The notes under the pieces are model-generated. The model worked only from the letters and a program-made list of their open reading frames with translations. It was not told where the DNA came from and did not search any database. Below, one piece after another: positions 30,970 through 47,713 of a DNA stretch of 64,000 bases (position 1 is its first letter; each line of letters opens with the position of its first letter). Location of the stretch: positions 64,001 to 128,000 of the IMG/VR virus record IMGVR_UViG_3300020183_000007. One strand, given 5' to 3'. The stretch comes from a virus. The translations under genes were made by a program, and so were the position numbers.

Positions 30970-31188
30970 TCAGTAGTCGTAACCAGACTCCCAGCCCATT
31001 TCTTCGTACAATTCATTGCTGGATACATAGGAATTATACTGATCTAGAACAGCAAACTCTACATTAGCTATACCGCCAAACTGATTAATCCATTGGAAAC
31101 AGTCCGGACAACGTACACTTAGCCCAATTAGTTCTTCGCTAATAATAAACTCCGAACCACAGTGTGGGCAATCCATATATGAACTCAT
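30970..31188 (-). CDS. Zn-ribbon protein
   Basis: CPHC...CPDC, acidic tail. Confidence 0.6.
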   Translation of the reverse strand: MSSYMDCPHCGSEFIISEELIGLSVRCPDCFQWINQFGGIANVEFAVLDQYNSYVSSNELYEEMGWESGYDY

Positions 31189-31607
31189 ATTTTATCCTTT
31201 GCTTTGTTAGGCATTGAGTGAGTGATGTTTGCCGGCGTCAATAACCGGACATGTAGAAATATAGCCATCCACAGCATTGCTTGCAACACATATGCGAATA
31301 ATATCCAAAAAATTTCTTGCGGGCGACTTTTACGATCAGAAACAACACTGATTTATATAAGATTATATAAGTTTAATAAGGGATAATATCAGGAAAAATT
31401 TATGGGGGGGAGATAATGAGTACATGTTGTGGCTTCAGACTTTTAACGAGGCCACCCCCCCATGGGGTATGTGCTTGCTAGGAACGACAATGAGCGGTCG
31501 TCCACTCCCTACAGTGGTGCAGGTATCCCGCATAAAAGGACAGCTCCGATGAACACGTTACCATCGTAAAAGAAATGTGTAGCCATGTTAATGAAAGGAT
31601 CATCAAC

Positions 31608-31901
31608 ATGATAACATGCATCAACGATGTCATCGGCAAGTATGCCGTTGACATGAACGGAAACACCCTTCCCTATCACAAGGAGGTGACCGGACTTTTT
31701 GTCGCCCACACGGGCACTGAAGTCTGGATCAAGTCTCCGAGTGGGGACAGCTCGGACGTGCTCATCTTCGGGCATGTACACGGCAACACCGGGTGGTTCG
31801 CCCGGGAGTTCGGTGGTCGCATGATCACCGTCAGGAGCCAGCGCAAGTGGGACTACCAGAACCAAATGTGGTACTGGTACAACACAGTCCACGCTGCCTG
31901 A
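31608..31901 (+). CDS. Hypothetical protein (first gene of GC-rich island)
   Basis: GAAAGGA RBS before ATG 31608; GC3-rich codons. Confidence 0.6.
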   Translation: MITCINDVIGKYAVDMNGNTLPYHKEVTGLFVAHTGTEVWIKSPSGDSSDVLIFGHVHGNTGWFAREFGGRMITVRSQRKWDYQNQMWYWYNTVHAA

Positions 31902-32026
31902 CAAAGCACCTGGTAGGGCAGGTGCACAAAGAGTTGTTCCCCTGGGATCTTCGGATCCTGGGGGAACTTCTTTTTTGAGGATAGGCATCCAGCCATGTCC
32001 ACTGCACCAAAGAAAGGAGGTGTGCA

Positions 32027-32119
32027 ATGTTGCAGATTCCGATGTACATCATCGGGATCAGCGTCATCCTCTTTGCACAGGTCACGTTTTTCGTGGATCT
32101 GTTCAAGAAGAAGGACTGA
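32027..32119 (+). CDS. 30-aa membrane peptide
   Basis: AAGGAGG RBS; MLQIPMYIIGISVILFAQVTFFVDLFKKKD. Confidence 0.6.
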   Translation: MLQIPMYIIGISVILFAQVTFFVDLFKKKD

Positions 32120-32312
32120 TCTGAAACTGCCACGACACGGGTGGCCAAGCAGTAGTGACGCTTGGGAACAGAATAATCACTAAAAGAAATTGGTTCCTTC
32201 GGGAATCTTTTTCTTTGAGGATAGGCCATTCTCCTCATCTGGCTGCCGGAAGTTAGGCATAAGACCAGCGTCCCTTGTCAGGATGTAAGTGCACCCAGCG
32301 TGCCTAAAAGAC

Positions 32313-32348
32313 TACGTAATAATCACGTCCGGTACGTTAAGCCGAGAC
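32313..32348 (+). ncRNA. Leader hairpin/pseudoknot motif, copy 1 of 5 (others 33397-33430, 35025-35058, 40957-40994, 42054-42091)
   Basis: GTYCGG-TACGTTAAG-CCG(A)GAC hairpin with upstream ACGT(A) complementary to the loop; always 10-25 nt before a start codon. Confidence 0.6.
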
Positions 32349-32371
32349 ACTTTCAGATTCAGGAGGAATCA

Positions 32372-32677
32372 ATGGGAGTAAAACTTCCTAGGTGCATCCG
32401 TGCGCGTCGGATCGGGCATTGGAGCTATGGCTCCGACACCTTTTTCGACGCGAACGGGAACAAGGCGCCGGTGACCTGGACCTGCAACTGCGGGTCCAGG
32501 ATCACCCTGGAGGTATACGACTGCCAGACCGGCGAGTACACCGACACCCCCAAGGAACTGCTGCAGGCGTTCCTGGCAGAGCACACGGCTTGTGTGGCCA
32601 TGTGCTACAACTGCCGAAAGGTGGAGGTGGAGCGCCAGGGATACTGGTGCAACGAGTGCGAGGCCGAGCACTACTGA
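32372..32677 (+). CDS. Cys-rich (Zn-binding) hypothetical protein
   Basis: AGGAGG RBS before ATG 32372 (the longer track start overlaps the leader motif); CNC, CYNC, CNEC. Confidence 0.65.
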   Translation: MGVKLPRCIRARRIGHWSYGSDTFFDANGNKAPVTWTCNCGSRITLEVYDCQTGEYTDTPKELLQAFLAEHTACVAMCYNCRKVEVERQGYWCNECEAEHY

Positions 32678-32801
32678 CATCCAGGCTGATGAGCCCAGCC
32701 TGAAGAAAAGAGGAGTTCTCTCCTACGCATCCAGCGTAGGGGGAACTTCTTCTTTTGACAATAGACCTGCGAACAGCAAGTAACAGGTCGGAAAGGAAGC
32801 C

Positions 32802-33242
32802 ATGAACGTCAATGCCATGAACCTTATCACCAAATACACAGGAGCCATCTCCATTGTTTGGGATGGTGAAGCGATTACTCAGGTAACCCTGGGTATCGGT
32901 ACCAAGCACCAGAGGACGGTCTCCAGGTCGTACCTGGAGGACGGTCAAATCATCTTCTCACGGGAAGATGCCCCTTCCGGGACCATCTGGCCCTTGAGCA
33001 GGCAAGAGCTGGAGGAGATCGCCCTCATGGGTGGCGTCGTGATGCTCCATGCCGATGACCTGTATCGGCTCGTTGTCCTCCCTGAGTGGTGGACGGTGGA
33101 GTGCGAAATGGCCATTGAGGGTGAATGCCCTGAGTGGCCATTAGCAGAAGAAGAGTCCCCCAAGTCCCTTGGGGAAGTAATGCTTGAAATGATCCAGAGG
33201 ATCATTGAGGAGGCAGACGATCCAGATCAATGGGACAAGTAA
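32802..33242 (+). CDS. Hypothetical acidic protein
   Basis: GAAAGGA RBS; flanked by cassette motif and terminator. Confidence 0.7.
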   Translation: MNVNAMNLITKYTGAISIVWDGEAITQVTLGIGTKHQRTVSRSYLEDGQIIFSREDAPSGTIWPLSRQELEEIALMGGVVMLHADDLYRLVVLPEWWTVECEMAIEGECPEWPLAEEESPKSLGEVMLEMIQRIIEEADDPDQWDK

Positions 33243-33451
33243 TGCTGAAACCCCGGGGGTCGAAAGGTCCTCGGGGAATCTTTTTCTTTGAGGATAGGCC
33301 ATTCTCCTCTACGCAGAGCCTGAGCGTATAATAAATCATGGGTGACGCAGCAGGAGCTAAATGCCTGACAGGTTATCTTACCTTGACAAAAGAGAAACGT
33401 AATCATCATGTTCGGTACGTTAAGCCGGACAACAAATGATTCGGAGGAATC

Positions 33452-34027
33452 ATGAACGAGTTCTTGTTCAAGGTCTTCGTGGTCTTTCTGACCACGCAGA
33501 CCAACCTAGCACGGGCCCCCTGGGCCAAGTGGCTAGGCCACTGCTGGGGGGAGACCACCCAGCACATCGTATACTACTTCGTCACGGGCAAGCACATGTG
33601 CTGCCCCTGGCGGGAAGTCCCACCGGTCGCATGTGGGCATGCGCCCACCTGCGACGAGTATTACTACCAGGCGCTGGACCTGGAGGTGGCCATGGAGGCC
33701 GCTTTCAAGTCCGGTGCCCTAGAAGAGTACACCTACGACAGCCTGATGGCTGCTCTAAGTGACCAGTACCTGGTGCTGAAATGCGCCAAGTTCTGGTTGG
33801 ACAAACAGGGCACCATCGCCGGTTTTCCGGCCATGGCCGCCCTGAACGAATTTTTGGAGGATAACAACATGATCCTCCGGGATAATGGCGGACTGATGTC
33901 GGGTGCCCCCCAGCATCAGTACGCCAAGAAGACATTGGTCTTCTCCTCGGACAAGGCGTTCGAGGAGGAGGCCAAGCTGTGGCTGAAGATCCACAGCGCG
34001 CAACTTAGGGGCTTCAACAACAGCTGA
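33452..34027 (+). CDS. Hypothetical protein
   Basis: GGAGG RBS; 191 aa; cassette context. Confidence 0.7.
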   Translation: MNEFLFKVFVVFLTTQTNLARAPWAKWLGHCWGETTQHIVYYFVTGKHMCCPWREVPPVACGHAPTCDEYYYQALDLEVAMEAAFKSGALEEYTYDSLMAALSDQYLVLKCAKFWLDKQGTIAGFPAMAALNEFLEDNNMILRDNGGLMSGAPQHQYAKKTLVFSSDKAFEEEAKLWLKIHSAQLRGFNNS

Positions 34028-34147
34028 CCCAGAAAGGCTGATGAGCCCAGCCTGAAGAAGAGAGGAGTTCTCTCCTACGCAACCAGCGTAGGGGGAACTT
34101 CTTCTTTTGACAATAGACTTCTGAAACCAAAGTAAGAGGTCGGAAAG

Positions 34148-34474
34148 GTGACCATGTTGGTCAATCTCACCCCCCACCAGATCACTCTGGTGGATGACCT
34201 GGGTAACATTATCCAGGTTGTTGAGCCGGAGGCAACTTCGGCTCGGTGCTCCTCGGAGCGCCAATTCGCCTTCGAGGCGGACAGCATCCGGGTCAACCGG
34301 ACTATGTTCGGAGAGGTTTCAGGCCTCCCGGACGAGGTAAACGGGACGTGGTACATCGTGTCACGTATCGTTGCCGAAGCGTCGGGCCGGTCGGACCTGA
34401 TCATCCCGGATGAAACAGTTCGGAATGCCGAAGGACAGATTATCGGCTGCAAGTCGTTCGCGACTTTGGGCTGA
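34148..34474 (+). CDS. NLTPH-motif small protein (candidate Crn4-like ring nuclease)
   Basis: VNLTPH...LP...YIVSRIVA...RSDLIIP...VRNAEGQIIGCKSF family signature. Confidence 0.55.
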   Translation: MTMLVNLTPHQITLVDDLGNIIQVVEPEATSARCSSERQFAFEADSIRVNRTMFGEVSGLPDEVNGTWYIVSRIVAEASGRSDLIIPDETVRNAEGQIIGCKSFATLG

Positions 34475-34512
34475 TCTGATGTCAAACAACAATTCACCGA
34501 AAGGAGGTGAAC

Positions 34513-34785
34513 ATGAAGAAGCATCCAAAGCGGGTGTACGTCTTTAGGCGTGCGCTCGTTCTGGTCCTGGCAGTTTTCTTTGCTGCAGCGGCCTACGGAA
34601 TGTACGAAGAGCTTACGGGCCCTTCGTACGAGTGCGAGCAAGCACCCGTGGTCGTTGGGCAGGGAGACACTCTCTGGAGGATCGCTGAAAAGCGATGCGA
34701 CGGAGATTTGCTGGAGGTCCGGTACAAGCTGGTGAAGTCCTACGGGACTAATATCCGGCCTGGACAGGTCATTCAGCTGCCCTGA
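34513..34785 (+). CDS. Membrane-anchored LysM protein
   Basis: Basic N-terminus + TM helix, VVGQGDTLWRIAEK...IRPGQVIQLP. Confidence 0.85.
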   Translation: MKKHPKRVYVFRRALVLVLAVFFAAAAYGMYEELTGPSYECEQAPVVVGQGDTLWRIAEKRCDGDLLEVRYKLVKSYGTNIRPGQVIQLP

Positions 34786-34801
34786 GACCAGAGCCTACTG
34801 T

Positions 34802-34928
34802 GCACCTACAGACAACGATGATCTGTAGGGTGTAGCGGGGTTTTGCACCCTGGGAACAGAAGCGGGGGGGTCGGCAGTGGGCCGGCTCCCTGTTCTGTTT
34901 GAGGAAATCTCTTTTTTGAGGATAGACC
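34802..34928 (+). ncRNA. 127-nt structured element, copy 1 (copy 2 at 40079-40205)
   Basis: Three hairpins; differences between copies fall in loops or convert A-U to G-U. Confidence 0.55.
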
Positions 34929-35080
34929 ATTGTCCTTAGCGCAGAACCTGAGCGCTATATAAATCATGGGTGACGCAGCAGGAGCTAAATGCCTGACAGG
35001 TTATCTTACCTTGACAAAAGAGAAACGTAATCATTATGTTCGGTACGTTAAGCCGGACAACAAACGTTCACGGAGGAATC

Positions 35081-35347
35081 ATGAACGTAAACAAGAACAA
35101 GATCACCCTCGTGGTGACAGCAATCATCTGTGTGCTCCTCGTTCTGGAGCCCACCAGTGAGCTGACGGTGGGGATCATCTCCCTGCCGATCAAGGCCTTC
35201 TTCACGATCCTGGGCTTCGGCTTCGGCCTCGTGAACTGGCCCATGCTCACAGTCGTTGTGATTGGAGCGGGAATCGCCTTCGTGGCGAAAACCCGTACGG
35301 TCGATTGGACCGTCGTTAAGAGCTTCTTCCGCTCGGAAGAAAGCTGA
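35081..35347 (+). CDS. Small membrane protein
   Basis: GGAGG RBS; 2-3 hydrophobic helices. Confidence 0.7.
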   Translation: MNVNKNKITLVVTAIICVLLVLEPTSELTVGIISLPIKAFFTILGFGFGLVNWPMLTVVVIGAGIAFVAKTRTVDWTVVKSFFRSEES

Positions 35348-35480
35348 CTATACCTGGTGATGAGTCCACCAGATGAGCAATGGGATTGTTTTCCCCGGGG
35401 ATCGAAAGGTCCTCGGGGAAACTTTCTTTTTTACCAATAGGCCCCCGAACAACCGAAGGGGTCGGAAAGAGAGGAAGGTA

Positions 35481-35663
35481 ATGAACATCAAGGGCGTGGA
35501 GGTCCTCTCGTACGAGGAGTACGAGGGTATGCTCCATAAGGTGGTGACACGATACAAGGTCGTGGGCACGACCTTCGGGTTCAACCGCTTTCAGGCGGGC
35601 CCCTTCCAGACGAAGGGAGAGGCAGAGAAGTTCGCAGCTCTTCTGACTCTTCTGAGGGGCTGA
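35481..35663 (+). CDS. Hypothetical protein (60 aa)
   Basis: GAGGAAGG RBS before ATG 35481. Confidence 0.6.
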   Translation: MNIKGVEVLSYEEYEGMLHKVVTRYKVVGTTFGFNRFQAGPFQTKGEAEKFAALLTLLRG

Positions 35664-35825
35664 CGAACTTTGTGGGGCACCGTCTTACCCGGCGCATCTG
35701 CTTAGACGGGTCATAGGGCAAGGATAGTTTTCCCCCGGGGTCTTAACGGACCCTGGGGGAAACTTTCTTTTTTACCAATAGGCCCCCGAACAACCGAAGG
35801 GGTCGGAAAGAAAGGAGAAATCCGC

Positions 35826-36203
35826 ATGAAAGTTGTAACATGGTTGTCGTCCACGATGGACCCAACCAAGGGAGTAGCTCCCGGTAAGTGCGTATTCACC
35901 GGTGAGTACCCAGGGGTGTTTTGTGTCCCCTTCGTAGAAGATGGGACGCCTGGAAAGGCACTCAATGATTTCTGGCACTCACCCCGGTATGCCAGAGATC
36001 TTCAAGTGATCCTTGAAGTTCCAGTGGAAAATCTCTTCTTCCGGCTCATGGGCCAAGAGAAGCCACTTCCGATTTACAAGGACGGACGAGTGGCCATCAA
36101 TCTCATCATCAATAAGTGTTTTGATGATGATAATGCAATAATCATCAAGAACTTCGATCCTGCGTGGATCGTTTCTATCAGAAAGGAAGAAAACAATGGA
36201 TAA
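35826..36203 (+). CDS. Hypothetical protein
   Basis: AAGGAG RBS; overlaps the next gene. Confidence 0.65.
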   Translation: MKVVTWLSSTMDPTKGVAPGKCVFTGEYPGVFCVPFVEDGTPGKALNDFWHSPRYARDLQVILEVPVENLFFRLMGQEKPLPIYKDGRVAINLIINKCFDDDNAIIIKNFDPAWIVSIRKEENNG

Positions 36204-37680
36204 CTACTCAGAGGGATGGAAGGCCCTCAAGGAGTTTGAGCAGAAGTTCTGCTCTGTCATGGCCTCCGAGGTCGAAATGTCGATCCGGGAGGGAGATTCT
36301 GAGGTAGTTGGCTCAGAATTGGTTTACAACCACTCCTACATGCCCATCCCCCAATACAGGAACGGAAGGGTGAGGGCCAACTTTGAGATGGGTGATAAAC
36401 TTCACCTGGTCCACCAGAGGCTGGAAACGCCCGGAAAGGGCAGGGTCAAGTGGGCTCTGCGAAGCTTCCACAGTATCCTCGAATGCGAGGATGGGCGCTA
36501 CATGCCCAAGAGTCGGTACCTGAAGGAAGTCAAATTCGCAGTCAATCCAACAGAGGATGGCTACCGATTTCAGATCCTGAAGACACAGGGTGGCAAAACT
36601 CGCGTTTACTGGGGGTATAACACCATTCATTCAGGACTCCTGCAAGAATTTGTCCATATCTCACTGCGAACAGCGGCAACGAAACTCATTGGTCAATATA
36701 TGGATCCGCAAAGGATTCATGCAGTGTTGCAGTGGTTTTCCTACGAACAAACAAAGTATCCCGAGTACTTTGCTAGTGACAACCCTGCGAGTCGTCAATC
36801 GCAAGAATTGCAACTTGGCGGACCGGGATGGTCCCGTATCCTGACCGGTAAGACCGGCGCAAAGGACATCCTGAACGGGATCTATGACCCCAAGGGTATC
36901 AGAAGGATTCCTAAGAATGCCTTCGGTGGCGTCGGGGAAATCAGGACTTTGGACCGTTTAGCCAAAGCGGTTTTCATGACTCGTGCGCTGCGCAGTCTTG
37001 ATCCGCACACCTTTGGCGAAGTTAGTAGTGTATGGCCAGACAGACCGATAAATTATAAGTATGAGGGATCATTTGAGAAGGCCGACAAGATTGATTGGCT
37101 TGTCAATAAACTTCCGAAACTCATTTCTGTAAAGAACATTCAGGAATGTCAGACTCCATATACATACATGGAAGACACAGTCAGGATGCTCAAGCAAATG
37201 CCACGAACACTGCGTTCTGCATGTTTGACTGAGATCCGCAGAAATGCAGCTAGAGGCATTGAATGGGCACACGACTTTGTCGCAACTGAACATGCAAAAG
37301 TTGGGAAAGAGAACAAGGACATCAATGTCAGTGCACTCAGTAAGTTTGAGGGAACTGTCAATGATGACATTGCGTGTGTAGTTCCCAAGTGCACTCACGA
37401 TTTGGTTCAGTGGGGCGCTGAGTACAACATTTGCATTGGCTCATATGCAGATGAAGTTTACAATGGCAGTACTTACTGCATGGGGTTCCAGAATCCCCAG
37501 ACTAAGACCTTTTATGGTTTTGCACAGGTCAACCCGTGGGACGGACATCTTCTCCAGCTATTGGGTAAGCACAACAACCATCTTCCTGATGTGGAGAGGC
37601 TTGCAATTGAGCGTTACCTGGTAACGCTTGGTGTCAATGTTGATAATTACTGGGGCAAGCCCCTTGTTGCACTTAACTAA
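36196..37680 (+). CDS. PcfJ-like domain protein, paralog 1
   Basis: C-terminal DLVQWGAEYNICIGSY...G...FAQV...QLLGKHN motif. Confidence 0.65.
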   Translation: MDNYSEGWKALKEFEQKFCSVMASEVEMSIREGDSEVVGSELVYNHSYMPIPQYRNGRVRANFEMGDKLHLVHQRLETPGKGRVKWALRSFHSILECEDGRYMPKSRYLKEVKFAVNPTEDGYRFQILKTQGGKTRVYWGYNTIHSGLLQEFVHISLRTAATKLIGQYMDPQRIHAVLQWFSYEQTKYPEYFASDNPASRQSQELQLGGPGWSRILTGKTGAKDILNGIYDPKGIRRIPKNAFGGVGEIRTLDRLAKAVFMTRALRSLDPHTFGEVSSVWPDRPINYKYEGSFEKADKIDWLVNKLPKLISVKNIQECQTPYTYMEDTVRMLKQMPRTLRSACLTEIRRNAARGIEWAHDFVATEHAKVGKENKDINVSALSKFEGTVNDDIACVVPKCTHDLVQWGAEYNICIGSYADEVYNGSTYCMGFQNPQTKTFYGFAQVNPWDGHLLQLLGKHNNHLPDVERLAIERYLVTLGVNVDNYWGKPLVALN

Positions 37681-37688
37681 GTCTGGCA

Positions 37689-37740
37689 GCCCCTACCCCT
37701 TAACTGGGGAGGCATAGTGGTTCGATTCCACATAGGGGCA
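37689..37740 (+). ncRNA. Anticodon-arm-less tRNA-like element (52 nt)
   Basis: Acceptor GCCCCTA/TAGGGGC + A73, D-arm CCTT-AACTGGG-GAGG, T-arm GTGG-TTCGATT-CCAC; only 3-4 nt where the anticodon arm should be. Confidence 0.65.
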
Positions 37741-37781
37741 CTGTTCGCAATCCCGCGGACTATAACATGATTGGAGAAATC

Positions 37782-38117
37782 ATGAAGAAGAAAGTTGAGT
37801 GGTGCGGATGCATGGACGTCCGTTCACCGAAAGAAGGGTTCAAGGACATCTTCTCGAAAGAGTTGGTGGACGGGAAACCACGAGGTGAACTTTGGGAGCT
37901 GATGGAAGTGAAGAGTTGGGAAGAGTTCAAGGATGAACTCTCCGACATTTCCTGGGGAATTGGCCGAATCATTGGCGGATTCCGTGGCAAGGCGTACGTG
38001 CGTGTGCCTGGGGATCGAATTCACTACGAGAAGGTTGTGAACCGAATTGAGGATTATGGCTGCATCCGCAGCAAGAGGTTCTTGATTGACGGACACTGCC
38101 CGAACGAGGGTAAGTAA
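37782..38117 (+). CDS. Hypothetical protein
   Basis: GGAG RBS before ATG 37782. Confidence 0.6.
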   Translation: MKKKVEWCGCMDVRSPKEGFKDIFSKELVDGKPRGELWELMEVKSWEEFKDELSDISWGIGRIIGGFRGKAYVRVPGDRIHYEKVVNRIEDYGCIRSKRFLIDGHCPNEGK

Positions 38118-38294
38118 AGAAAGAAAGGTGGCCCCGGGGAATTCGCCTCGGGGCCTTTGACTGAAAGGAGAACAGTAAGACGAACTACCGTACTGATCAG
38201 AAAAAAGGGGTCTGTTCCCGGGGAGAAATCCCTGGGAACTTTCTTTTTTGAGGTTAGACCTCTGAAACCAAAGTAAGAGGTCGGAAAGGTCGTC

Positions 38295-39734
38295 ATGACC
38301 GATTTCTACTCCAAGGGCTGGAAGGCCCTCAAGCAGTTCGAGCAGCAGTTCTGCTCGATCCCTGAGCGTGATGCCCAAGACACCATACTATCAGCACCCT
38401 TTCAGACATACTATCGGGGCGATACCGATGGGTCGACATTGGTGCACAACACCTCGTACCTGCCCACACCAGGGCCTTATGGTGTCTGTATGTGGGAAAC
38501 CGGTGACAGGATACACCTGATCCACACGCGGCTCGACCTTCAGCCGGCTGGCAAGGTCAAGTGGGCGCTGCGAAGCTTCCACGGCATCTTGCAAATGGAT
38601 CCGACCATAGGGCGCTACATGCCCAAGAGTCGGTACCTGAAGGAAGTCAAATTCGCAGTCAATCCAACAGAGGATGGCTACCGCTTCCAGATTTTGAAGA
38701 CACAGGGTGGCAGAACCTGTGTCTATTGGGGATATGATCCGGAGAAGTTGATGCAAGAAATCGGCGATCCGGAGATGTGGAGAGCGGCGCGCAACGTCGT
38801 TTACAAGTATCTGATTCCGGATCAGATGTATAAAGTGTTGCAATGGTTTCGTTCGGAAAACCCCGTAGAGGAAACCGAACAATTGCGACTTGGTGGACCG
38901 GGATGGTCACGGATTTTGACTGGTAAGACCGGCGCAAAGGACATCCTCAACGGGGTCTATGACCCGAAGGGTGTCAGAAGGATTCCTAAGAACGCCTTTG
39001 GTGGTGTAGGGGAAATTCGAACCCTTAACGCTTTGGCAAAAGCGGTCTTCATAACTCGTGCGTGGCGCAGTCTTGATCCGCACACCTTTGGCGAAGTTAG
39101 CAATGCTTTGTCAAAGGATTTTCGTCTTGTCTATAATGGGTCATTTGAACAGGCTGACAAAATTGATTGGCTTGTCAGTAGAATTCCCAAACTGCCTATC
39201 GGTAGGGAGGAAAACTTTGAATCTATTGACCTTTTGTCCATTGAGGACATGATCACAATGCTCAAGCAAATGCCCCGAGCTTTGCGTTCTGCGTGTTTGG
39301 CTGAAATACGCAGAAGCGCAAATCGGGGTATGCAGTGGGCACACGATTACGTTGTCCTTGAGTTTAACAAACTGAAAACAGCCGACAAGGTAATCGAGCA
39401 GGATGAGCTCAGCCGGTTCGAGGGAACTGTCAACGATGACATGATTTGCGTGGTCCCGAAGTCCACCCATGATTTGGTTCAGTGGGGGACTGAGTACAAC
39501 ATCTGTATCGGTTCATACGCAGATCGCGTGTACCGTGGAAACACCTTGTGTATGGGGTTCCAGAACCCTCACACCAAGAGTTTCTACGGTTTTGCGGAGG
39601 TCAATCCGCAGAACAAGAAGCTTGTCCAACTGCTGGGCAAGTACAACCACAGTCTTGATAATCTGGACAAGCTTGCCATTGAGTGTTATCTAACCTCGAA
39701 GGGAGTTGGTGTTGATTTCTATCGGGGTAAATAA
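38295..39734 (+). CDS. PcfJ-like domain protein, paralog 2
   Basis: Colinear with 36196-37680 including identical peptide blocks (YMPKSRYLKEVKFAVNPTEDGYRFQILKTQGG). Confidence 0.65.
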   Translation: MTDFYSKGWKALKQFEQQFCSIPERDAQDTILSAPFQTYYRGDTDGSTLVHNTSYLPTPGPYGVCMWETGDRIHLIHTRLDLQPAGKVKWALRSFHGILQMDPTIGRYMPKSRYLKEVKFAVNPTEDGYRFQILKTQGGRTCVYWGYDPEKLMQEIGDPEMWRAARNVVYKYLIPDQMYKVLQWFRSENPVEETEQLRLGGPGWSRILTGKTGAKDILNGVYDPKGVRRIPKNAFGGVGEIRTLNALAKAVFITRAWRSLDPHTFGEVSNALSKDFRLVYNGSFEQADKIDWLVSRIPKLPIGREENFESIDLLSIEDMITMLKQMPRALRSACLAEIRRSANRGMQWAHDYVVLEFNKLKTADKVIEQDELSRFEGTVNDDMICVVPKSTHDLVQWGTEYNICIGSYADRVYRGNTLCMGFQNPHTKSFYGFAEVNPQNKKLVQLLGKYNHSLDNLDKLAIECYLTSKGVGVDFYRGK

Positions 39735-39837
39735 CAAGTTTTTCCCCGGGGATCGGCAGAAATGCTGGTCCTCGGGGAAACTTTCTTTATAGGCATCCAG
39801 CCATGTCCACTAAACCAAAGAAAGGAGGTGAACAAAC

Positions 39838-40062
39838 GTGTTCAACACACGAATCCCTCTTTCGAACGGATCGTACATCTCGTTGGCCCAAAACGAAATG
39901 TGCGTCCTCAGAGAGGAGTTCGTCCCCACTCTGGAGTGGGCGGGTGTCGAAACGCAGGATGATATCCTGCGGTTCGATAACCTGTCAACACTCCGGACGT
40001 TGTTGGATAAGGCGGAAGCCTGGAGTCTGAAGACTCCGGATCCGTCTTCCGACAACTCGTGA
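39838..40062 (+). CDS. Hypothetical protein
   Basis: AAGGAGG RBS, GTG start. Confidence 0.6.
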   Translation: MFNTRIPLSNGSYISLAQNEMCVLREEFVPTLEWAGVETQDDILRFDNLSTLRTLLDKAEAWSLKTPDPSSDNS

Positions 40063-40272
40063 CGACGAACGCAACTGCGCACCTGCAGACAACGATGATC
40101 TGTAGGGTGTGCCGGGGTTATCCACCCTGGGAACAGAAGCGGGGGGGTCGGCAGTGGGCCGGCTCCCTGTTCTGTTTGAGGAAATCTCTTTTTTGAGGAT
40201 AGACCGACCGGGTCTACCTACGGTCCCAGCACAACAGGATCTAACCAATCCGCTGGGAGAAAGGGAGGCATC

Positions 40273-40545
40273 ATGCAGAAGCTGCCCAAGCGAGTGTACG
40301 TCAAAAGGCGTATCCTCGTGGCTGCTCTCACGGTGTTCTTTCTGATGGCCGGATGTGGCATGATCAAGAAAGTGACGAGCCCCTCGTTCACTTGCCCGGA
40401 TCGCACCCACACGGTTCTTCAGGGGGAAAGTCTCTGGACCATTGCTGAAAAGCATTGCGACGGAGACCTGCTCGCTGTACGTTACCATCTGACACAGGCC
40501 TACGGGCCCGTGATTCAGCCCGGTGACGTCATCGAGCTGCCTTGA
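40273..40545 (+). CDS. Membrane-anchored LysM protein, paralog of 34513-34785
   Basis: KRVYVKRR + TM + HTVLQGESLWTIAEK...IQPGDVIELP. Confidence 0.85.
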   Translation: MQKLPKRVYVKRRILVAALTVFFLMAGCGMIKKVTSPSFTCPDRTHTVLQGESLWTIAEKHCDGDLLAVRYHLTQAYGPVIQPGDVIELP

Positions 40546-40757
40546 CGGCAAGTCGGCTCACTGAACCAGCAGTAATCTGGGAAGTCGCAACACACGACTA
40601 AAGATAATAACTCATATGAAGTTGGCATTGGTTACTTGCCTTATATAAGTATGAGTGAATTATTATGTGTTTTATTTGTGGGGAAACCCCGGGACTCGTA
40701 TCGATCCGAAGGGCACACCGATGGGTGTGTAATTCGTGCGAGTTCTGGGGTTTTCTC

Positions 40758-41019
40758 TTTGAGGATAGACCGCATCCTCAAGGTGACCGTGCTTTAGTCA
40801 CACGCCCCTCGTTAGGGGAAGGGCCGTAGGGCCAAGACATCGCACAACTACCGACCCACAACCATGTGAGTGGGACCTAATGGGGAACTGATGGGAAAAC
40901 TGAGCCACATATTCGCTCAGCCAGAAGGAAACCAGAAGGTGAGAAAATCATGAGAAACGTGGAATCAGCCCTGTCCGGTACGTTAAGCCGAGACACCAAA
41001 GGAGGAGGTCCGCATGGAC
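40758..41019 (+). repeat. 262-bp direct repeat (second copy 41855-42116): structured 5' leader
   Basis: Copies identical except one A/G; run from the TAGAC motif to the ATGGAC start. Confidence 0.9.
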
Positions 41020-41343
41020 CTGATCATAAAATTCGTCACCTACGTGGTGGCGGGTAAGTACAACGACCTGGTGGGTTTCGGCCCCCAGATCGTCGTCAAC
41101 GGAAAGCCGATCACGCTCGAGGCGTGGGTCCCCCGCAACAAGAAGGCTCGCAAGGGCTCCGAAGTCACGGGAACTCCCACCATCGAGGTTGAGGAGGGCA
41201 CTCAAATCACCAAGTCCTACACAAAGGACGGGGTGGAGGTGCTCCTGCCGGTCTGGAAGTTGCGGGTTGTGGTAAGCGGGGACTACGAGTTCTCGCAGCC
41301 GAAAACCGTGTCCCTCCAGGATTTCTTCAGGGACAACGTCTGA
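41014..41343 (+). CDS. Hypothetical protein (cassette payload A)
   Basis: GGAGG RBS; ends FFRDNV. Confidence 0.7.
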   Translation: MDLIIKFVTYVVAGKYNDLVGFGPQIVVNGKPITLEAWVPRNKKARKGSEVTGTPTIEVEEGTQITKSYTKDGVEVLLPVWKLRVVVSGDYEFSQPKTVSLQDFFRDNV

Positions 41344-41434
41344 CACCAATTCCGACGGTAAGCGGTCAACCGTCGGACAAGGAGGAGCCCCCTATCAAGG
41401 GGGTTTTCTCTTTGAGGATAGACCATTGGGGTCA
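41323..41434 (+). repeat. ~112-bp direct repeat (second copy 42453-42565): ORF tail + terminator + next motif
   Basis: Near-identical including the last codons FFRDN. Confidence 0.85.
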
Positions 41435-41459
41435 ATCTACAACAGAAAGGACAAGGGTG

Positions 41460-41810
41460 ATGATGTGTAATCACTTTTTAATGCTGCAGATGATGCAGCA
41501 GGCGGTGGAGGTTCTTCGTGAAAGGAAGAGTCCTCCAAAGAAGTGTGTTTCCCCAACCACCGGTAAGTTGATGGTGGAGTGGGGCATCTGGCGTAAGTTC
41601 TACGCCAAGATGGGCGTTTCTTCAGTAGGAAAGCCTTACATCATGATCTCGTTCCCGAAGCCTGTAACTAGGCACGAGGATGGGCATGAATACGGCCACG
41701 ATTACATCATGTGGCTGAATCCAAAGCAAGGGTCCATGACCTGCCCGAATTGCAGGAAAAAGTTGATTGACAGCAAGCTCGTTAATGAGCTAAGTGAGGT
41801 TGTTCAATAG
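41460..41810 (+). CDS. Hypothetical protein with CPNC
   Basis: GAAAGGA RBS; cassette context. Confidence 0.65.
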   Translation: MMCNHFLMLQMMQQAVEVLRERKSPPKKCVSPTTGKLMVEWGIWRKFYAKMGVSSVGKPYIMISFPKPVTRHEDGHEYGHDYIMWLNPKQGSMTCPNCRKKLIDSKLVNELSEVVQ

Positions 41811-42110
41811 AGGTTTTCCCCGGGGATCGAAAGGTCCTCGGGGAAACTTTCTTTTTTGAGGATAGACCGCATCCTCAAGGTGACCGTGCTTTAGTCACAC
41901 GCCCCTCGTTAGGGGAAGGGCCGTAGGGCCAAGACATCGCACAACTACCGACCCACAACCATGTGAGTGGGACCTAATGGGGAACTGATGGGAAAACTGA
42001 GCCACATATTCGCTCAGCCAGAAGGAAACCAGAAGGTGAGAAAATCATGGGAAACGTGGAATCAGCCCTGTCCGGTACGTTAAGCCGAGACACCAAAGGA
42101 GGAGGTCCGC

Positions 42111-42473
42111 ATGGACTACATCCACACCCTCATGGACATCTGGCGGGCGATCTGCTGGTCCATCCGCTTCGGCGGAGAAGGTCAGCAGAAACTCGACAAG
42201 AAGGGGCGGGAGTTCACCTCCTATTCCTTCGTCACCGAGGGCAACAGGGGTGTCCAGCCCAAGTCCGTGGTCGTGTACACGGGCAAGAAGGGGAACATCA
42301 CCGTGATGGCTAACATCAGCGCCCTGCGCAATGATGGCCAGCGGTACCCCAGGTCTGTCAAGTTCCTTCTCAAGAACTTGAACGAGGAGAAGTTCTTCCT
42401 CGTATGCGGTAAGACCCGCATGTACGACCACTACAAAGTGGATTATCCGGAGTTCTTCAGGGACAACGCCTGA
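42111..42473 (+). CDS. Hypothetical protein (cassette payload B)
   Basis: Same leader as payload A; ends FFRDNA; interior unrelated to payload A. Confidence 0.7.
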   Translation: MDYIHTLMDIWRAICWSIRFGGEGQQKLDKKGREFTSYSFVTEGNRGVQPKSVVVYTGKKGNITVMANISALRNDGQRYPRSVKFLLKNLNEEKFFLVCGKTRMYDHYKVDYPEFFRDNA

Positions 42474-42587
42474 TCCACAATTTCGACGGTAAGCGGTCAA
42501 CCGTCGGACAAGGAGGAGCCCCCTATCAAGGGGGTTTTCTCTTTGAGGATAGACCATTGGGGTCAGTCCAAAACAGAAAGGAAAGTC

Positions 42588-42782
42588 ATGGCAAAGAAAA
42601 TCATGAAGCTGGGCGAAAACGCCGGAGAGTGCGTGATCGATCAAAAAGATCGGTACACGGTTCTCACCTTCGATCAGAAGGAAGCAGCCGACAAGTTCGC
42701 CAAGAGCAAGGGCGTTCAGGTTCAGACGAAGATCGTCGGCGCAGCGAAGGTTCGTTCCTTCGTCGTCATCGTCAAGAGCTGA
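42588..42782 (+). CDS. Small basic protein
   Basis: GAAAGGA RBS before ATG 42588. Confidence 0.65.
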   Translation: MAKKIMKLGENAGECVIDQKDRYTVLTFDQKEAADKFAKSKGVQVQTKIVGAAKVRSFVVIVKS

Positions 42783-42881
42783 TCAGAAAAAGGGTCTGTT
42801 CCCGGGGAGAAATCCCTGGGAACTTCCTTTTTTGAGGATAGGCTACTGGGGCTAGTCCAAAAAGAAAGGTAAGGTTATGTC

Positions 42882-43418
42882 ATGGATAAAATGAAGAAAT
42901 TCTTCACAATCGTCGGAACTGGGTCTCGCAGCCTGGTGGAAGACGAAGAAAAGTTCAACAAGGTGCTTGCACACCTCACTGAACTTCTTGGCAAGGCAAA
43001 AGCCAAGCATGGAGAGAACCTTCTGGTCATCTCTGGCATGGCTGAGGGTTTCGATGAAGCCCTTGCCAAGGCTGCAATGGCAAACAGCGTTCAGCTGCTG
43101 GCAGCTATCCCCAATCGGGGGTACAGCAAGTATTACTGGAAGGATCACAGTATGACTGGTTTCGACCGGTACTCCTCTTTCCAGGAGCTGGCAAGGTATG
43201 CCAATGAAACAGGTGGGGTTGTTTACACCTGTGGATGCATCAAGGATCAACCCACAAAGTGTGGACACTGGGATGGGCGGATCTACAATTTCAAGCGAAA
43301 TGAATGGATGCTTGAGCGTGCCGACATTGTCTGGGTTTACAACCCGACGAGCAAGGGGACTGCTCACGCATACGGACTGGCTCGCAAAGCTGGTATTCGC
43401 ACCCACATCATTCAGTAA
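42882..43418 (+). CDS. SLOG superfamily (YspA-like) protein
   Basis: IVGTGSR, VISGMAEGFDEALAKAA, RNEWMLERADIVWVY...SKGTAH. Confidence 0.75.
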   Translation: MDKMKKFFTIVGTGSRSLVEDEEKFNKVLAHLTELLGKAKAKHGENLLVISGMAEGFDEALAKAAMANSVQLLAAIPNRGYSKYYWKDHSMTGFDRYSSFQELARYANETGGVVYTCGCIKDQPTKCGHWDGRIYNFKRNEWMLERADIVWVYNPTSKGTAHAYGLARKAGIRTHIIQ

Positions 43419-43552
43419 AGGAGGACAAATGGTCGTCCCCGGGGATCGAAAGGTCCTCGGGGAAACTTTTCGTCTTTTGAAAGAGATAGTCCCAGAAATA
43501 TTAATTAATACCATAGTCCTTGAAACAAAAGTAAAGGATAGAAAGGAGAGTC

Positions 43553-43759
43553 ATGGCTTACAACTATGACAATCGCAATTGCAATAAGTGTGGTGAGTTT
43601 CACTACAAAGGTGAACTAAGGTACCACGGGTTCATACCCGGCAAGGGAGACTATTTCACCTGCAAGAAATGTGATGAAGTAAAAGCTGCCATCAAGAAGA
43701 ATGTGAAAATCAAGAAGGAACGAGAGGCCTTGAAGGCTTCTCAGCCTACATTGTTCTGA
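43553..43759 (+). CDS. Small Zn-ribbon protein
   Basis: CNKC...CKKC; AAGGAG RBS. Confidence 0.6.
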   Translation: MAYNYDNRNCNKCGEFHYKGELRYHGFIPGKGDYFTCKKCDEVKAAIKKNVKIKKEREALKASQPTLF

Positions 43760-43951
43760 TGCCAACGTCTGGTCCCGGGGGGTGTTTACTCCCCGGGATA
43801 AGGACTTTAACAAAGTGATAGATTTATAATTAAAGTTATATAGTTTTTGGACTAGAACCCTAGTCTTTAGTTTGCGGGCATGACTAGTCCGTATTCTAAA
43901 CTCGAGTTAGGGACAGACACAAGGTCGTCCTTTGAGCCCTAGGAGGGTGCT

Positions 43952-44353
43952 ATGAAGACATACCAAATCAACCATGCGAGTTGGGTCGTGGGGCCCTTCG
44001 GGGAGTTCGGGACCCTGCTTGCGAACCCGGTCGGGCACCGTGAGGAACAGCAGGTGGACAAGATTGCCATCAGGGTCAACGACAAGGAGACCTACAAGAC
44101 CGCACAAAGCTGGCTGGCGGAGCTGAAGGACACGGACTTGGTGCTGACCGCTACCGCGGAGTTCAACCCGGTGCACCTCAGCAACGGTGACATCGGATTC
44201 ACCAAGGATCGCTGGGAGGACAAGAAGACCGGCGAGAACCGCGTGCAGGCTTCGCTGTACATCGGGTTCGCCACCGAGCCCAAGTGGGACATCATCAAGA
44301 AGCCGAAGGTCAACACCCTCGGCAACCTCAAGGAGCTTCGGCGCCCCGAGTGA
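43952..44353 (+). CDS. Putative OB-fold ssDNA-binding-like protein
   Basis: AGGAGG RBS; RWEDKKTGENR resembles the SSB L45 region; weak. Confidence 0.4.
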   Translation: MKTYQINHASWVVGPFGEFGTLLANPVGHREEQQVDKIAIRVNDKETYKTAQSWLAELKDTDLVLTATAEFNPVHLSNGDIGFTKDRWEDKKTGENRVQASLYIGFATEPKWDIIKKPKVNTLGNLKELRRPE

Positions 44354-44528
44354 GAGGCACAAGAGCAGTCGGGGACCCTTCGGGGTTCCCGGCTGTCTCA
44401 GCCTCAAAAAATACCATGTAGTTCCTTCAGTTCTAGCAGGGTCGTTGAATACGCGAGGTTTCGTTGAATACGCGAGGTTTCAGAAAGTTCTAAAAACTCA
44501 GTAGACCTACAAACGCTGGGAGGCGATC

Positions 44529-44702
44529 ATGACAAACAAGGAAATTCTGCAGGCTGCTCAAGCAATTCTAAATGAAATGCGAAAGCGTGAAGGCGGAGAG
44601 TCTCACAACATCTACGAGAAAGCAGAAGTTTTATTCATGGCAATCAGCAAAGCCTATCCCTGTGATATGGGAGAAGTGAAAGAAAAAGGAGGCTCACAAT
44701 GA
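44529..44702 (+). CDS. Hypothetical protein (57 aa)
   Basis: GGAGG RBS; ATGA overlap with the next ORF. Confidence 0.55.
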   Translation: MTNKEILQAAQAILNEMRKREGGESHNIYEKAEVLFMAISKAYPCDMGEVKEKGGSQ

Positions 44703-44842
44703 GCGACATTCAGGAAGCCCTCGAACAAAAGATCAAAGAGCTCCGCGAGATGGCACGAAATGCCAACTCCATCGCGGAGTCCCTCCGCCTCCACGCTGAG
44801 GCGTGCATCCTGGAGGAGCGACTCATCCACCTGGATGACTGA
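44699..44842 (+). CDS. Small coiled-coil protein (47 aa)
   Basis: GGAGG RBS; followed by a long terminator hairpin. Confidence 0.55.
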   Translation: MSDIQEALEQKIKELREMARNANSIAESLRLHAEACILEERLIHLDD

Positions 44843-44945
44843 TCTCCCCCTTGCTGAGAGTTCCTCGGTATACCTTCGGGTGTATCGGGGAACTCTCCGC
44901 GTAAAAAAGCTCTAAAAACCCACTAGACTCATAAGGAGTACTGCA

Positions 44946-45266
44946 ATGACAACTTTCATTTGGACGTGCATAGCGTTTGCGCTTGGTTTCTTAAGCTACA
45001 TAGGATATTGCCAAGTCCGACATATTGTTTCAGCGCGACTCAACTACGGCAAGCCCGTGTTGCTTGACGGCGAAAAGATTGGTTCAGTCATTTCGCTCCG
45101 TCACGACGGTTGCAAACGATACGTATTTGTGGATTATGATTATTGCTTGAATACTGATGTGCTTTATTACACCGCAGACGATGCCACAAATGCAATCAAG
45201 TGTGCGTATATCGCAATCATAAACAAGCGAAACCGAACAGCAACAAAACTCCACCACGCCATCTGA
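44946..45266 (+). CDS. Hypothetical membrane-anchored protein
   Basis: AAGGAG RBS; N-terminal TM helix. Confidence 0.65.
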   Translation: MTTFIWTCIAFALGFLSYIGYCQVRHIVSARLNYGKPVLLDGEKIGSVISLRHDGCKRYVFVDYDYCLNTDVLYYTADDATNAIKCAYIAIINKRNRTATKLHHAI

Positions 45267-45276
45267 TTCCAAACTC

Positions 45277-45723
45277 CACTAGGGGAGTATAAACCGATTT
45301 AAGCCTAGTGCGTTCCCCAGGTAACCCTGGGGAGGTATCTGAGTATCCACCTACATTCCAGTGTAGGCCCTCGCTCAAAGCCCCGGCGTTGAGAAAAATG
45401 GATAGAGATCTGGATAATCTCTATGGAATATTATAACATTTGACGGTCCCCAAGTGTTATAAGAACTCACTGTATCAGGCGGAAACCTGATCATATAGTG
45501 GATACAGGTATAATGTGGTATCAGTTCTGCATTATACCCACTAACGAACTGAAGGTCTCTCCGTAGATAGCTGACCAAAGCATTAGGGCATACCCCGATG
45601 TAGGATTGACGAATCCATTCTACCGTTGAAAATAATCTCAGGCAACGTATTACCTGAGTACCGGGAGTTCCCAGTCCCCGAAGGATGTCAGAGATTGTAC
45701 CAATATTGGTATAATCAACTGGG
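45277..45723 (+). ncRNA. Candidate large structured ncRNA (~450 nt)
   Basis: No RBS-backed ORF; about ten stems, a long-range GTATCCAC/GTGGATAC helix and a CAGTTC/GAACTG pseudoknot; strand assumed from neighbouring genes. Confidence 0.5.
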
Positions 45724-45872
45724 CGGTTCTAAAATTTTCCCTACCTTTGCATGGCGCCTCCCGGTGGTCCTGCTCGCTCCTATACCAGCGAGTGGGCCAC
45801 TGGCGCCATGAATTTCACATTCTAAAAAATACTGCAAAGTCCTCAAATCTACAGCACAAACAAAGGAGCGTA

Positions 45873-46079
45873 ATGCGCGAACAAGCAAGAGCCCGTCCCA
45901 GATGTTCAGTAGAAACCTTAAACTTGCTACAGCAAGTCGAAATCGCTATTAGATTCTGGGAATCAGAAGGCGAATTAACGCACTTGATTAAAGCAATGGC
46001 AGAAAAAGAGCAACTTCTCAAGCAAGCGCTTGAAGAATCTCGTAACTGGGCCAAAGCTAATACTGCTATAAATATCTAA
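45873..46079 (+). CDS. Hypothetical protein
   Basis: AAAGGAG RBS before ATG 45873. Confidence 0.55.
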   Translation: MREQARARPRCSVETLNLLQQVEIAIRFWESEGELTHLIKAMAEKEQLLKQALEESRNWAKANTAINI

Positions 46080-46171
46080 TGTTTGAATTTCTATTTGGAT
46101 GGTTCTTTGATCTCATTGATTCCATCTTTGACGACAATTAAAGTAAAACAAAACACAGAAAGTAGACACGC

Positions 46172-46324
46172 ATGAAACTCAATATCATTAAGAACACTGG
46201 CAAGATCACTGGTAAGTTGGTATCTGCAACCAAAGCAGCACCTACAAAGACCAAGAGTGGTCTGGCTTTCGCAAAAGACCAGTTCAAGAGTGGTTTCAAC
46301 GCCGGCGTTTCGTCCGATAGTTGA
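46172..46324 (+). CDS. Small Lys-rich protein (50 aa)
   Basis: Manually read MKLNIIKNTGKITGK...; followed by a terminator hairpin. Confidence 0.5.
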   Translation: MKLNIIKNTGKITGKLVSATKAAPTKTKSGLAFAKDQFKSGFNAGVSSDS

Positions 46325-46452
46325 CCATACAGAAACCTGGAGTTGGGTCTATCACAGGCCCTTCTCCAGGTTTCAGTAAATAAATAAAATTCAATAGTCC
46401 CCTTAGAAAAAACTTATTAGTAGATTTAGAAAAAGGAAGTGTATTTAACGTT

Positions 46453-47472
46453 ATGAGTAACTATACAGATTTCAATATTGATTTTGATTTATTCTCTGCC
46501 GTGGCCGACACGCCAGAGATGTTCGAATCAACTGGCAAGACCAGCACGCTTCGTGCAGGTCGCGAAATCTCCTTCAAAGGCAGTATCAACGGCATTGAAG
46601 TCCCAGCATCTGCTATTCTGCACGATGCCAAACTGACTCGCCTGACCCTACTGAAGCAAACCAGCCCCAACACCAACAACGAATATTTCTTGGTGACTGG
46701 TATCATGCGCCCTGTGCGTATGGACCTGTTTGTCACGGTGGATGGCGAAAAGATGAACCTCATTGATGTTCTTCTCCTTGCCGTAAACGAAAAGTCCATG
46801 AACAAGATCACTCGTGATCAGTTCTTGGATACTGCCCGCAAGATTGGTTTGAACTTGACGGACGGTATGCCTTACTTCTTCCAGCAGTTTGGTGCAAACA
46901 TCAACGGCTGGACGAAGGCTCGTGAGGCTTTCGTTGCCGCAGGTGCCAAAGATGTCATCGGTAAAATGAACAACCGTGGTCGCATTGAGGCTGCGTATCA
47001 ACACGATGAAGGTGTTCCGGTAACTTCGTTTGAAGTTGGCAGTGTCGACCGCGAAAAGTCTCGCACCAAGCAGGGCTTTCTAAATCTGATTGACGCAACT
47101 GTCCATAACTTTGAGCGCATCATCCAACTACGCAAGGAGAGCAAGCTTCTCCGTGTGAAAGTGGACAGCTCAAGCGGTTGGAGCCAAGAGAAGCAACAGA
47201 AAGCTCGCGATCATGCTGACCTTCTCGCAGCGATGAGCCGTCAGTGGGTATCCAACTGGTCCGGTGCGCAACAGCGTATCGTTGTCCAGCCCAATGGCAA
47301 GCAGGAAACCCAGAATGTTTGGGATCCGGTGAATGCTCCGTGTGGTCGGTTCACAATGGTTGTTGACAATTCTCCCGTCGAAGTTGATCTTTGGACCAAC
47401 TCGGCTCGTGCGAATACGTCAAATACAACTGTTGGCGGTTCCGACAACGGCGACGAGCCCGACCCCTTCTAA
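46453..47472 (+). CDS. Hypothetical protein with acidic aromatic-tipped tail (possible ssDNA-binding protein)
   Basis: 339 aa ending SDNGDEPDPF. Confidence 0.55.
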   Translation: MSNYTDFNIDFDLFSAVADTPEMFESTGKTSTLRAGREISFKGSINGIEVPASAILHDAKLTRLTLLKQTSPNTNNEYFLVTGIMRPVRMDLFVTVDGEKMNLIDVLLLAVNEKSMNKITRDQFLDTARKIGLNLTDGMPYFFQQFGANINGWTKAREAFVAAGAKDVIGKMNNRGRIEAAYQHDEGVPVTSFEVGSVDREKSRTKQGFLNLIDATVHNFERIIQLRKESKLLRVKVDSSSGWSQEKQQKARDHADLLAAMSRQWVSNWSGAQQRIVVQPNGKQETQNVWDPVNAPCGRFTMVVDNSPVEVDLWTNSARANTSNTTVGGSDNGDEPDPF

Positions 47473-47479
47473 CCCTCAA

Positions 47480-47510
47480 ATGAGTTTGCCCGTTCTCATC
47501 AAAAACGGGC
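47480..47510 (+). ncRNA. H-type pseudoknot (homologous copy at 60307-60338)
   Basis: ATGAG-TTT-GCCCGTT-CTCAT-CAAA-AACGGGC; compensatory changes in both stems between the two copies. Confidence 0.75.
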
Positions 47511-47514
47511 GCTA

Positions 47515-47589
47515 GGGGATGACAGGCGTCGACACAAGGAAAAGCCAAAGTGCACCTTGTGGAACTGGGTTCGAATCCCAGCATCTCCA
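47515..47589 (+). ncRNA. tmRNA tRNA-like-domain mimic lacking the mRNA-like domain (75 nt)
   Basis: Acceptor GGGGATG/CATCTCC-A with G3:U70, stemless D-loop ending TCGA, helix CACAAGG/CCTTGTG closed by a 15-nt loop, GAA linker, T-arm CTGGG-TTCGAAT-CCCAG. Confidence 0.75.
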
Positions 47590-47713
47590 CTGGGGGACTG
47601 CGTGTATAACGCGTCTTAAACGACACTGTGGTGCGCCCCAAATTCACTCAAATATACACTTATTTTTAATTTCATACAAAAGAGAAAAAACACAGTCAAA
47701 AGGAACAGTCTTT

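Follow-up and report, generated by a model that had tools for sequence, protein, structure and literature searches.

A conserved 52-nt tRNA-like element without an anticodon arm in a phage operon: a predicted tRNA-derived processing signal

What might a tRNA-shaped RNA that has no anticodon arm be doing between two protein-coding genes of a phage? The question is raised by a short stretch of the 64,000-nt piece of viral DNA analysed here (positions 64,001 to 128,000 of IMG/VR record IMGVR_UViG_3300020183_000007), which we call the window. Its source is a single virus contig of 179,608 bp with 37.9% G+C and eight tRNAs called by ARAGORN, that is, a large freshwater phage. The stretch lies within a 17-kb island (window positions 31000-48000) of about 52% G+C in this otherwise 38% G+C phage, where small plus-strand gene cassettes follow one another, mostly separated by a GC-rich hairpin, a T run and the sequence TAGRC, and where leader-hairpin modules recur. 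A second GC-rich patch occurs at genome positions 163000-168000.

Minimum free energy folding returns, at exactly positions 37689-37740, the 52-nt tRNA mimic that the first-pass annotation of the window had proposed from the sequence, and the 7-bp acceptor stem, the T-arm with a UUCG loop and the discriminator A that it listed are all part of the fold (Table 1). The energy is -24.3 kcal/mol, which in single-sequence folding corresponds to z = -2.56, with 1 of 200 shuffles folding as well. The acceptor is exactly 7 bp long, being bounded by mismatches at both ends, and together with the T-stem it makes up 12 stacked layers. The T-arm carries the motif GGTTCRANYCC, and it has the G53-C61 pair and the UUCRA loop, the purine of which varies between G and A as it does in tRNAs; the first position of the T-stem is a mismatch. 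The discriminator, A73 in tRNA numbering, is followed by C and then by a base other than C, just as it is after most of the phage's own tRNAs, whose genes do not encode a CCA. Acceptor stem and T-arm are nearly identical to those of full phage tRNAs of the Thr, Lys, Ile and Met types.

Table 1. Parts of the tRNA-like element and features around it, in window coordinates.
Feature	Position	Strand	Basis
tRNA-like element, 52 nt, three-way junction	37689..37740	+	MFE fold, covariation, covariance model
Acceptor stem, 7 bp	37689-37695 with 37733-37739	+	MFE fold
Hairpin, 4 bp, 6-nt loop, abuts acceptor directly	37696-37709	+	MFE fold
Linker, 7 nt	37710-37716	+	MFE fold
T-arm, 4 bp plus A.A position, loop UUCGAUU	37717-37731	+	MFE fold
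Unpaired A	37732	+	MFE fold
Discriminator A	37740	+	MFE fold
Terminator-like site closing the preceding cassette; left limit of the three-gene unit	35729..35762	+	Terminator scan
Upstream cistron, PcfJ-like protein (PF14284); stop ends 8 nt before the element	36196..37680	+	Pfam family match
Hairpin, 6 bp, 6-nt loop, begins 3 nt after the discriminator	37743..37760	+	Hairpin scan
Hairpin with Shine-Dalgarno in loop, start codon 37782-37784 in 3' strand	37766..37784	+	Sequence inspection
Downstream cistron, 111-aa protein, no Pfam or PHROG family	37782..38117	+	Family searches
Next terminator-like site, then T-run/TAGAC junction; right limit of the unit	38214..38239	+	Terminator scan

Compared with the canonical tRNA cloverleaf (RF00005), the 5-bp anticodon stem and the 7-nt anticodon loop are absent and a single 4-bp hairpin stands between acceptor and T-arm, as the first-pass annotation had it. 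Its description of that hairpin as a D-arm with a D-loop GG, however, does not hold. The loop is UUAACU, the G18-G19 pair of a D-loop is missing from the hairpin loops of all six known versions of the element, and the sole invariant GG is found 3' of the hairpin, in the linker. In an alignment with a full phage tRNA (L013) this linker falls on the variable loop, and because what follows the hairpin looks like a tRNA variable loop, the label D-arm is not established; judged by sequence, the hairpin might equally occupy the position of the former anticodon arm. In either case the element is unable to decode, since its 6-nt hairpin loop varies freely. As the first-pass annotation had expected, standard finders overlook it. 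Run on the window, ARAGORN calls only a tRNA-Arg at 50714, and Rfam at E<=10 gives the element no tRNA match, returning a bare T-arm and a sub-threshold match on the reverse strand; among the Rfam tmRNA models the only match is a 15-nt T-arm to cyano_tmRNA at 10 bits.

How well is the fold conserved? We found six distinct versions, the window's own and five in metagenome contigs (L009, L010/L011, L016, L017 and L018), which fall into two clades. In L009 and L010/L011 the homologous element lies 13-14 nt after the stop codon of PcfJ-like genes whose products are 55-56% identical to that of the window, and a pattern scan of metagenomes added the copies in L016, L017 and L018. All 84 of the 84 paired stem cells in the alignment of the six versions are standard pairs, and RNAalifold recovers the same fold from it. 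In acceptor pairs 4 and 5 and in T-stem pair 2 both partners have changed in a compensatory way. The resulting covariation score exceeds that of each of 500 shuffles, and the pairing is lost when the partner columns are slid against each other; the covariation comes from two clades and hence from few independent events. Within a clade, substitutions are confined to the hairpin loop, to one linker position, or to U-A/U.G swaps that keep the pairing. The hairpin stem is invariant in all six versions and, because it never varies, receives no support from covariation. A covariance model built on the family scores its members at 73-77 bits against at most 29 bits for anything else, finds one copy per genome, and has the phage's own tRNA-Ile, at 22.5 bits, as its only other match in the genome. 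With five other versions keeping the fold, we take it as confirmed that the element is a real conserved RNA module and not a product of chance.

The whole-element pattern has no match in IMG/VR, none in the genome collection and three loci in metagenomes, those of L016, L017 and L018. A blastn search of the phage database with the locus gave no match. A pattern for the exact 3' half found nothing in IMG/VR and its degenerate form found full-length tRNAs only, while the covariance model returned only real tRNAs from four IMG/VR records and no match at three distant PcfJ-like loci.

The surroundings of the six versions suggest that the element moves as a unit. Between the window and L016 it is 94% identical, whereas both flanks are at the background level of about 52%; an element conserved between unrelated flanks is a discrete and portable module. 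The upstream gene is PcfJ-like in four of the six versions (window, L009, L018 and L010), a Macro-domain gene in L016, and a small ORF of 68 aa without a Pfam family in L017, and the genes downstream are of at least four different kinds. A homologue of the window's 111-aa gene has the element upstream in L017 and, in L001, stands without it behind an ordinary junction. Genes more closely related to the window's PcfJ-like gene lack the element: their reading frames end 7-8 codons earlier and are followed by a ribosome-binding site (L007) or a terminator (L008). No element accompanies the PcfJ-like paralogue in the window (38295-39734) or three distant homologues. More generally, element-free PcfJ-like genes lead into a terminator with a T-run/TAGRC junction or into a directly coupled ribosome-binding site, and the junction types recombine exactly at the borders of the element. 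As a side observation, distant PcfJ-like genes (L036 1-48, L037 1-200 and the P0008 contig) lie near genes with HAD domains of the PNK-phosphatase type, by weak precomputed hits, which hints at an RNA-end or nucleic-acid repair context for the PcfJ-like proteins of these phages.

If the neighbouring genes are exchangeable, the position of the element is not. All six versions have it on the coding strand, at a distance of 3-14 nt from the preceding stop codon; in the window it follows the stop at 8 nt and precedes the next start codon by 41 nt. In the window, the terminator scan shows nothing terminator-like from 35762 to 38214 and the element has no T-run/TAGRC junction beside it, from which we place it inside a three-gene transcript, in the order 125-aa gene, PcfJ-like gene, element, 111-aa gene. 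Just behind it comes a further hairpin, which begins 2-3 nt after the discriminator in all six versions and which, if the element were cut at its 3' border, is a candidate for a stem that protects the 5' end of the downstream mRNA. The hairpin of the window recurs in L017, L009 and L018, and a different one takes the same offset in L016 and L010, where a stem pair changes from G-C to A-U; both kinds are found combined with both clades of the element. In about 10 of the 17 cassette junctions scanned, the junction hairpin likewise starts at the G of TAGRC, and for this reason an RNA cut at the 3' border of the element would resemble a neighbouring primary transcript. A pattern for the downstream hairpin had only six unrelated chance matches in IMG/VR. 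The next hairpin, which presents the Shine-Dalgarno sequence in its loop, is also kept in L017, L009 and L018. Several island genes have a Shine-Dalgarno in a hairpin loop and a start codon in the 3' strand (for example at 33436-33455), and such hairpins may be a shared module of translational control.

How could these features fit together? In the explanation that we favour, and to which we give roughly an even chance, a three-gene early operon carries the element as tRNA-derived punctuation, to be read by RNase P and RNase Z of the host. RNase P, RNase Z and the CCA-adding enzyme need no more of a substrate than an acceptor/T-arm helix with its T-loop, and because of this we infer cleavage at both borders; what follows is conditional at every enzymatic step. 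Once transcribed, the acceptor of 7 bp and the T-arm would stack into a 12-layer helix capped by the T-loop, which host RNase P, RNase Z and CCA-adding enzyme would recognise. The enzymes would be those of the host, since a search of the phage genome for a CCA-adding enzyme and for an RNase Z-type metallo-beta-lactamase found neither. The 5' cut, by RNase P, would fall before G37689, and the 3' cut, by RNase Z or an equivalent, after A37740. The two cuts would uncouple the two cistrons, with the upstream mRNA losing its 3' region and the downstream mRNA starting 2 nt before a stable hairpin, as the primary transcripts of neighbouring cassettes do, and a 52-nt RNA able to take a CCA tail would be released.

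Speaking for a processing signal are the fold, its conservation and covariation, the discreteness of the element, a slot and strand that do not change, and the lack of any terminator or promoter junction beside it, all of which are observed. By analogy, support also comes from a T-loop that matches the motif used in searching for plant t-elements, from the parallel of a Pistol ribozyme in the same island, and from an element of like build in a like slot in another phage family (see below). The first-pass annotation had listed an RNase P/Z processing signal as one possible function; operon, strand, slot and hairpin context agree with it, and the cleavage is the part that we deduce from the enzymes' known substrates. 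Against it, the upstream mRNA would have no 3' stem once RNase P had cut, and the selective benefit of this is not obvious. The dependence on host enzymes also counts against it, as does the lack of the element behind close relatives of the upstream gene.

Several familiar kinds of RNA or DNA element can be set aside. An intrinsic terminator would demand a T run behind a GC-rich hairpin; none follows 37740, and the terminator scan lists no site there. A tRNA fragment of an attachment site is rejected on the presence of both acceptor strands and on the lack of a PF00589 match in the genome, a tmRNA domain on a third acceptor pair that is C-G rather than G.U and on the T-arm being the only part to match an Rfam tmRNA model, and a Y RNA of the YrlA type on the lack of a TROVE match in the phage and of any Rfam match of the element to it.

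The alternatives that deserve weighing differ in whether the RNA is cut and in whether it is RNA that matters at all. Compatible with processing is the view that the released RNA acts in trans, as a mini-tRNA that is stable, carries a CCA tail and is possibly aminoacylated. Such an RNA could inhibit proteins that read the acceptor end or the elbow (acceptor-end-modifying toxins, tRNA-targeting defence effectors, modification enzymes) or serve as a decoy for them, a role that the first-pass annotation had also named, or it could work together with the PcfJ-like protein. Both acceptor strands, the exact 7 bp, the discriminator and the full consensus T-loop are kept, which exceeds the needs of a bare cleavage signal; the setting is an island of small early genes in which a Macro-domain gene adjoins the element in L016, four of the six versions follow PcfJ-like genes, and the phage has in addition a tmRNA-like tRNA domain without a coding part. 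Yet the element has neither promoter nor terminator of its own and only one copy per genome, and in L016 and L017 no PcfJ-like gene stands immediately upstream, so that we consider a role in trans unlikely. The narrower version, in which an excised, CCA-tailed 52-nt RNA accumulates and titrates a factor binding the acceptor end or elbow of tRNAs, such as an anti-phage effector, and thus serves as an anti-defence decoy, strikes us as quite improbable. If the RNA were not cut, it could be a structural mRNA element of tRNA ancestry that blocks 3' exonucleases for the upstream cistron or acts as an insulator. It does sit where other cassettes carry a GC-rich hairpin, and its stable fold of about -24 kcal/mol is kept in all versions, but a plain hairpin would suffice for this, the invariant T-loop consensus, the mismatch-bounded 7-bp stem and the A73-C trailer would be left unexplained, and an uncleaved element internal to the transcript cannot be a 3' end; our estimate for it falls slightly on the low side of unlikely.

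One may also ask whether the element is only a relic at the level of DNA, a tRNA gene that has lost its middle and is either passive or used as a homology patch or attachment site in the shuffling of cassettes. The island does consist of recombining intergenic modules whose junction types recombine at the element's borders, and the stems do match those of real phage tRNAs. A neutral relic, however, would break its stems, and here each change at a paired position preserves the pair although the loops drift; the element has its two acceptor strands, whereas att sites hold tRNA 3' fragments; the strand relative to the genes is constant; and a search of the 180-kb genome for tyrosine integrases (PF00589), other recombinase families not being part of it, had no match. 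We therefore hold a relic to be very improbable. As for a chance combination of stem-loops, the single-sequence z of -2.56 is by itself no more than suggestive, but the gapped pattern for the whole architecture, which has one match in the window, has none in 100 shuffles, and five homologues are conserved in different contexts, which brings its probability close to nil.

The island holds other RNAs that bear on the preferred reading, that of a processing signal, or at least on its setting. A Pistol ribozyme (48 bits, above the Rfam threshold) starts at window position 45273 on the plus strand, 6 nt after the stop of the ORF at 44946-45266, and thus occupies the same after-stop slot about 7.5 kb from the element. 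From there to 46450 (plus strand) run about 1.1 kb without a plus-strand ORF longer than 61 aa; possibly this is one long, structured non-coding RNA. At the right edge of the island, 47515-47592 on the plus strand is a 78-nt match to the Rfam tmRNA family (54.6 bits, above the gathering score) that comprises the tRNA-like domain only, with an acceptor whose third pair is G.U, a D-loop analogue, a P2 stem and a T-arm; 15 nt stand in for the roughly 310 nt of pseudoknots and tag-coding part, and the whole could be a non-coding tmRNA mimic. Further on, 60305-60452 (plus strand) has no Rfam family match and carries a second consensus T-arm (about 60426-60444) and a tmRNA-type 3' acceptor strand with a poor 5' partner; the hairpin module before the mini-tmRNA (47483-47513) also precedes this T-arm, as a copy at 60310-60335, and the stretch may be a diverged second tmRNA-like element. 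SmpB, Ro60 (TROVE) and RtcB were looked for in the phage genome and not found. Even ordinary tRNAs are placed close to genes in this phage. Among the plus-strand tRNAs at genome positions 114714-131200 (including window 50714-50788), six of seven have an ATG at or within 4 nt of the annotated 3' end, and those after tRNA-Lys and tRNA-Ile open ORFs of 59 and 87 aa; real tRNAs may thus also punctuate mRNAs here and give nearly leaderless messages.

Is the element a peculiarity of one family? A relaxed pattern run on IMG/VR finds mostly real tRNAs and, besides, five matches with a perfect acceptor stem and T-stem. Three of these (L066 5819-5868, L113 3024-3073 and L153 8954-9003) represent a single 50-nt element from an IMG/VR phage family unrelated to this one. 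Its plan is the same, with an acceptor of 7 bp, a hairpin of 4 bp and a 6-nt loop set directly against it, then a short linker, the T-arm and a discriminator A. It lies 8-9 nt downstream of a stop codon on the same strand, and the upstream genes differ. The other two are on the minus strand: a 59-nt form that has a true D-arm but lacks the anticodon arm (L071 1288-1346) and a 49-nt anticodon-less tRNA-like form (L104 1424-1472). A second family with the same architecture and slot suggests, on sequence grounds, a widespread class. We found no description of such phage elements in the full-text literature searched and no Rfam family for the one studied here; because standard tRNA and RNA-family finders miss them, they are absent from phage annotation.

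We propose that the element is best filed with tRNA-like processing signals, its function being predicted. If host RNase P and RNase Z do cut it, phages use minimal tRNA mimics as portable punctuation that turns operons into separately stable mRNAs, and this would be the bacterial-virus counterpart of mitochondrial tRNA punctuation and of the plant t-elements, with tRNA mimics interchangeable with self-cleaving ribozymes in the same slot. Being small and modular, the element could be used as a compact splitter of synthetic operons.

How does it compare with systems already known? With the canonical tRNA and minihelix substrates it shares the 7-bp acceptor, the discriminator A and a T-arm with consensus loop; unlike a canonical tRNA it has no anticodon arm and no recognisable D-arm, only a 4-bp hairpin with a variable 6-nt loop that abuts the acceptor. 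The tRNA-like domain of tmRNA, including the copy at 47515-47592, also combines acceptor and T-arm without an anticodon, but the element has C-G as its third acceptor pair and neither an SmpB-binding D-loop analogue nor a P2 helix. Other tRNA mimics are cut by RNase P and in some cases CCA-tailed, among them mascRNA and menRNA, the 3' tRNA-like modules of MALAT1 and NEAT1, and the bacterial YrlA RNAs. Unlike the element, mascRNA is a full eukaryotic cloverleaf. YrlA is a Y RNA with a Ro60-binding stem and an adjacent Ro60 gene (PMC4201824), and these set it apart from the element, whose phage has no TROVE-domain gene.

In its position the element resembles the self-cleaving ribozymes of phages. 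For hammerheads that flank phage genes, a role in dividing long transcripts into mRNAs of gene length has been proposed (Perreault et al. 2011, PMC3088659). Such ribozymes and the window's Pistol share with the element the intercistronic slot after a stop codon among small phage genes and a proposed cutting of the transcript, but the element has no catalytic core and would borrow the tRNA-processing enzymes of the host. Also close in kind are the t-elements of plant mitochondria, reportedly the subject of work by Hanic-Joyce and Gray in 1990. Their borders coincide with mRNA ends made by RNase P and RNase Z, the excised piece can gain C or CCA, and a T-arm motif of the GGTTCRANYCC type was used to find them (Forner et al. 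2007, PMC1920247). The phage element differs in that it would rely on bacterial enzymes, processing here being predicted, in that it measures 52 nt against about 74, and in that it keeps to a fixed slot after the stop, with a hairpin at a fixed offset, and moves as a module of cassettes. Like the t-elements, it has a non-canonical tRNA-like fold with a kept T-arm motif and lies in mRNA next to a coding region.
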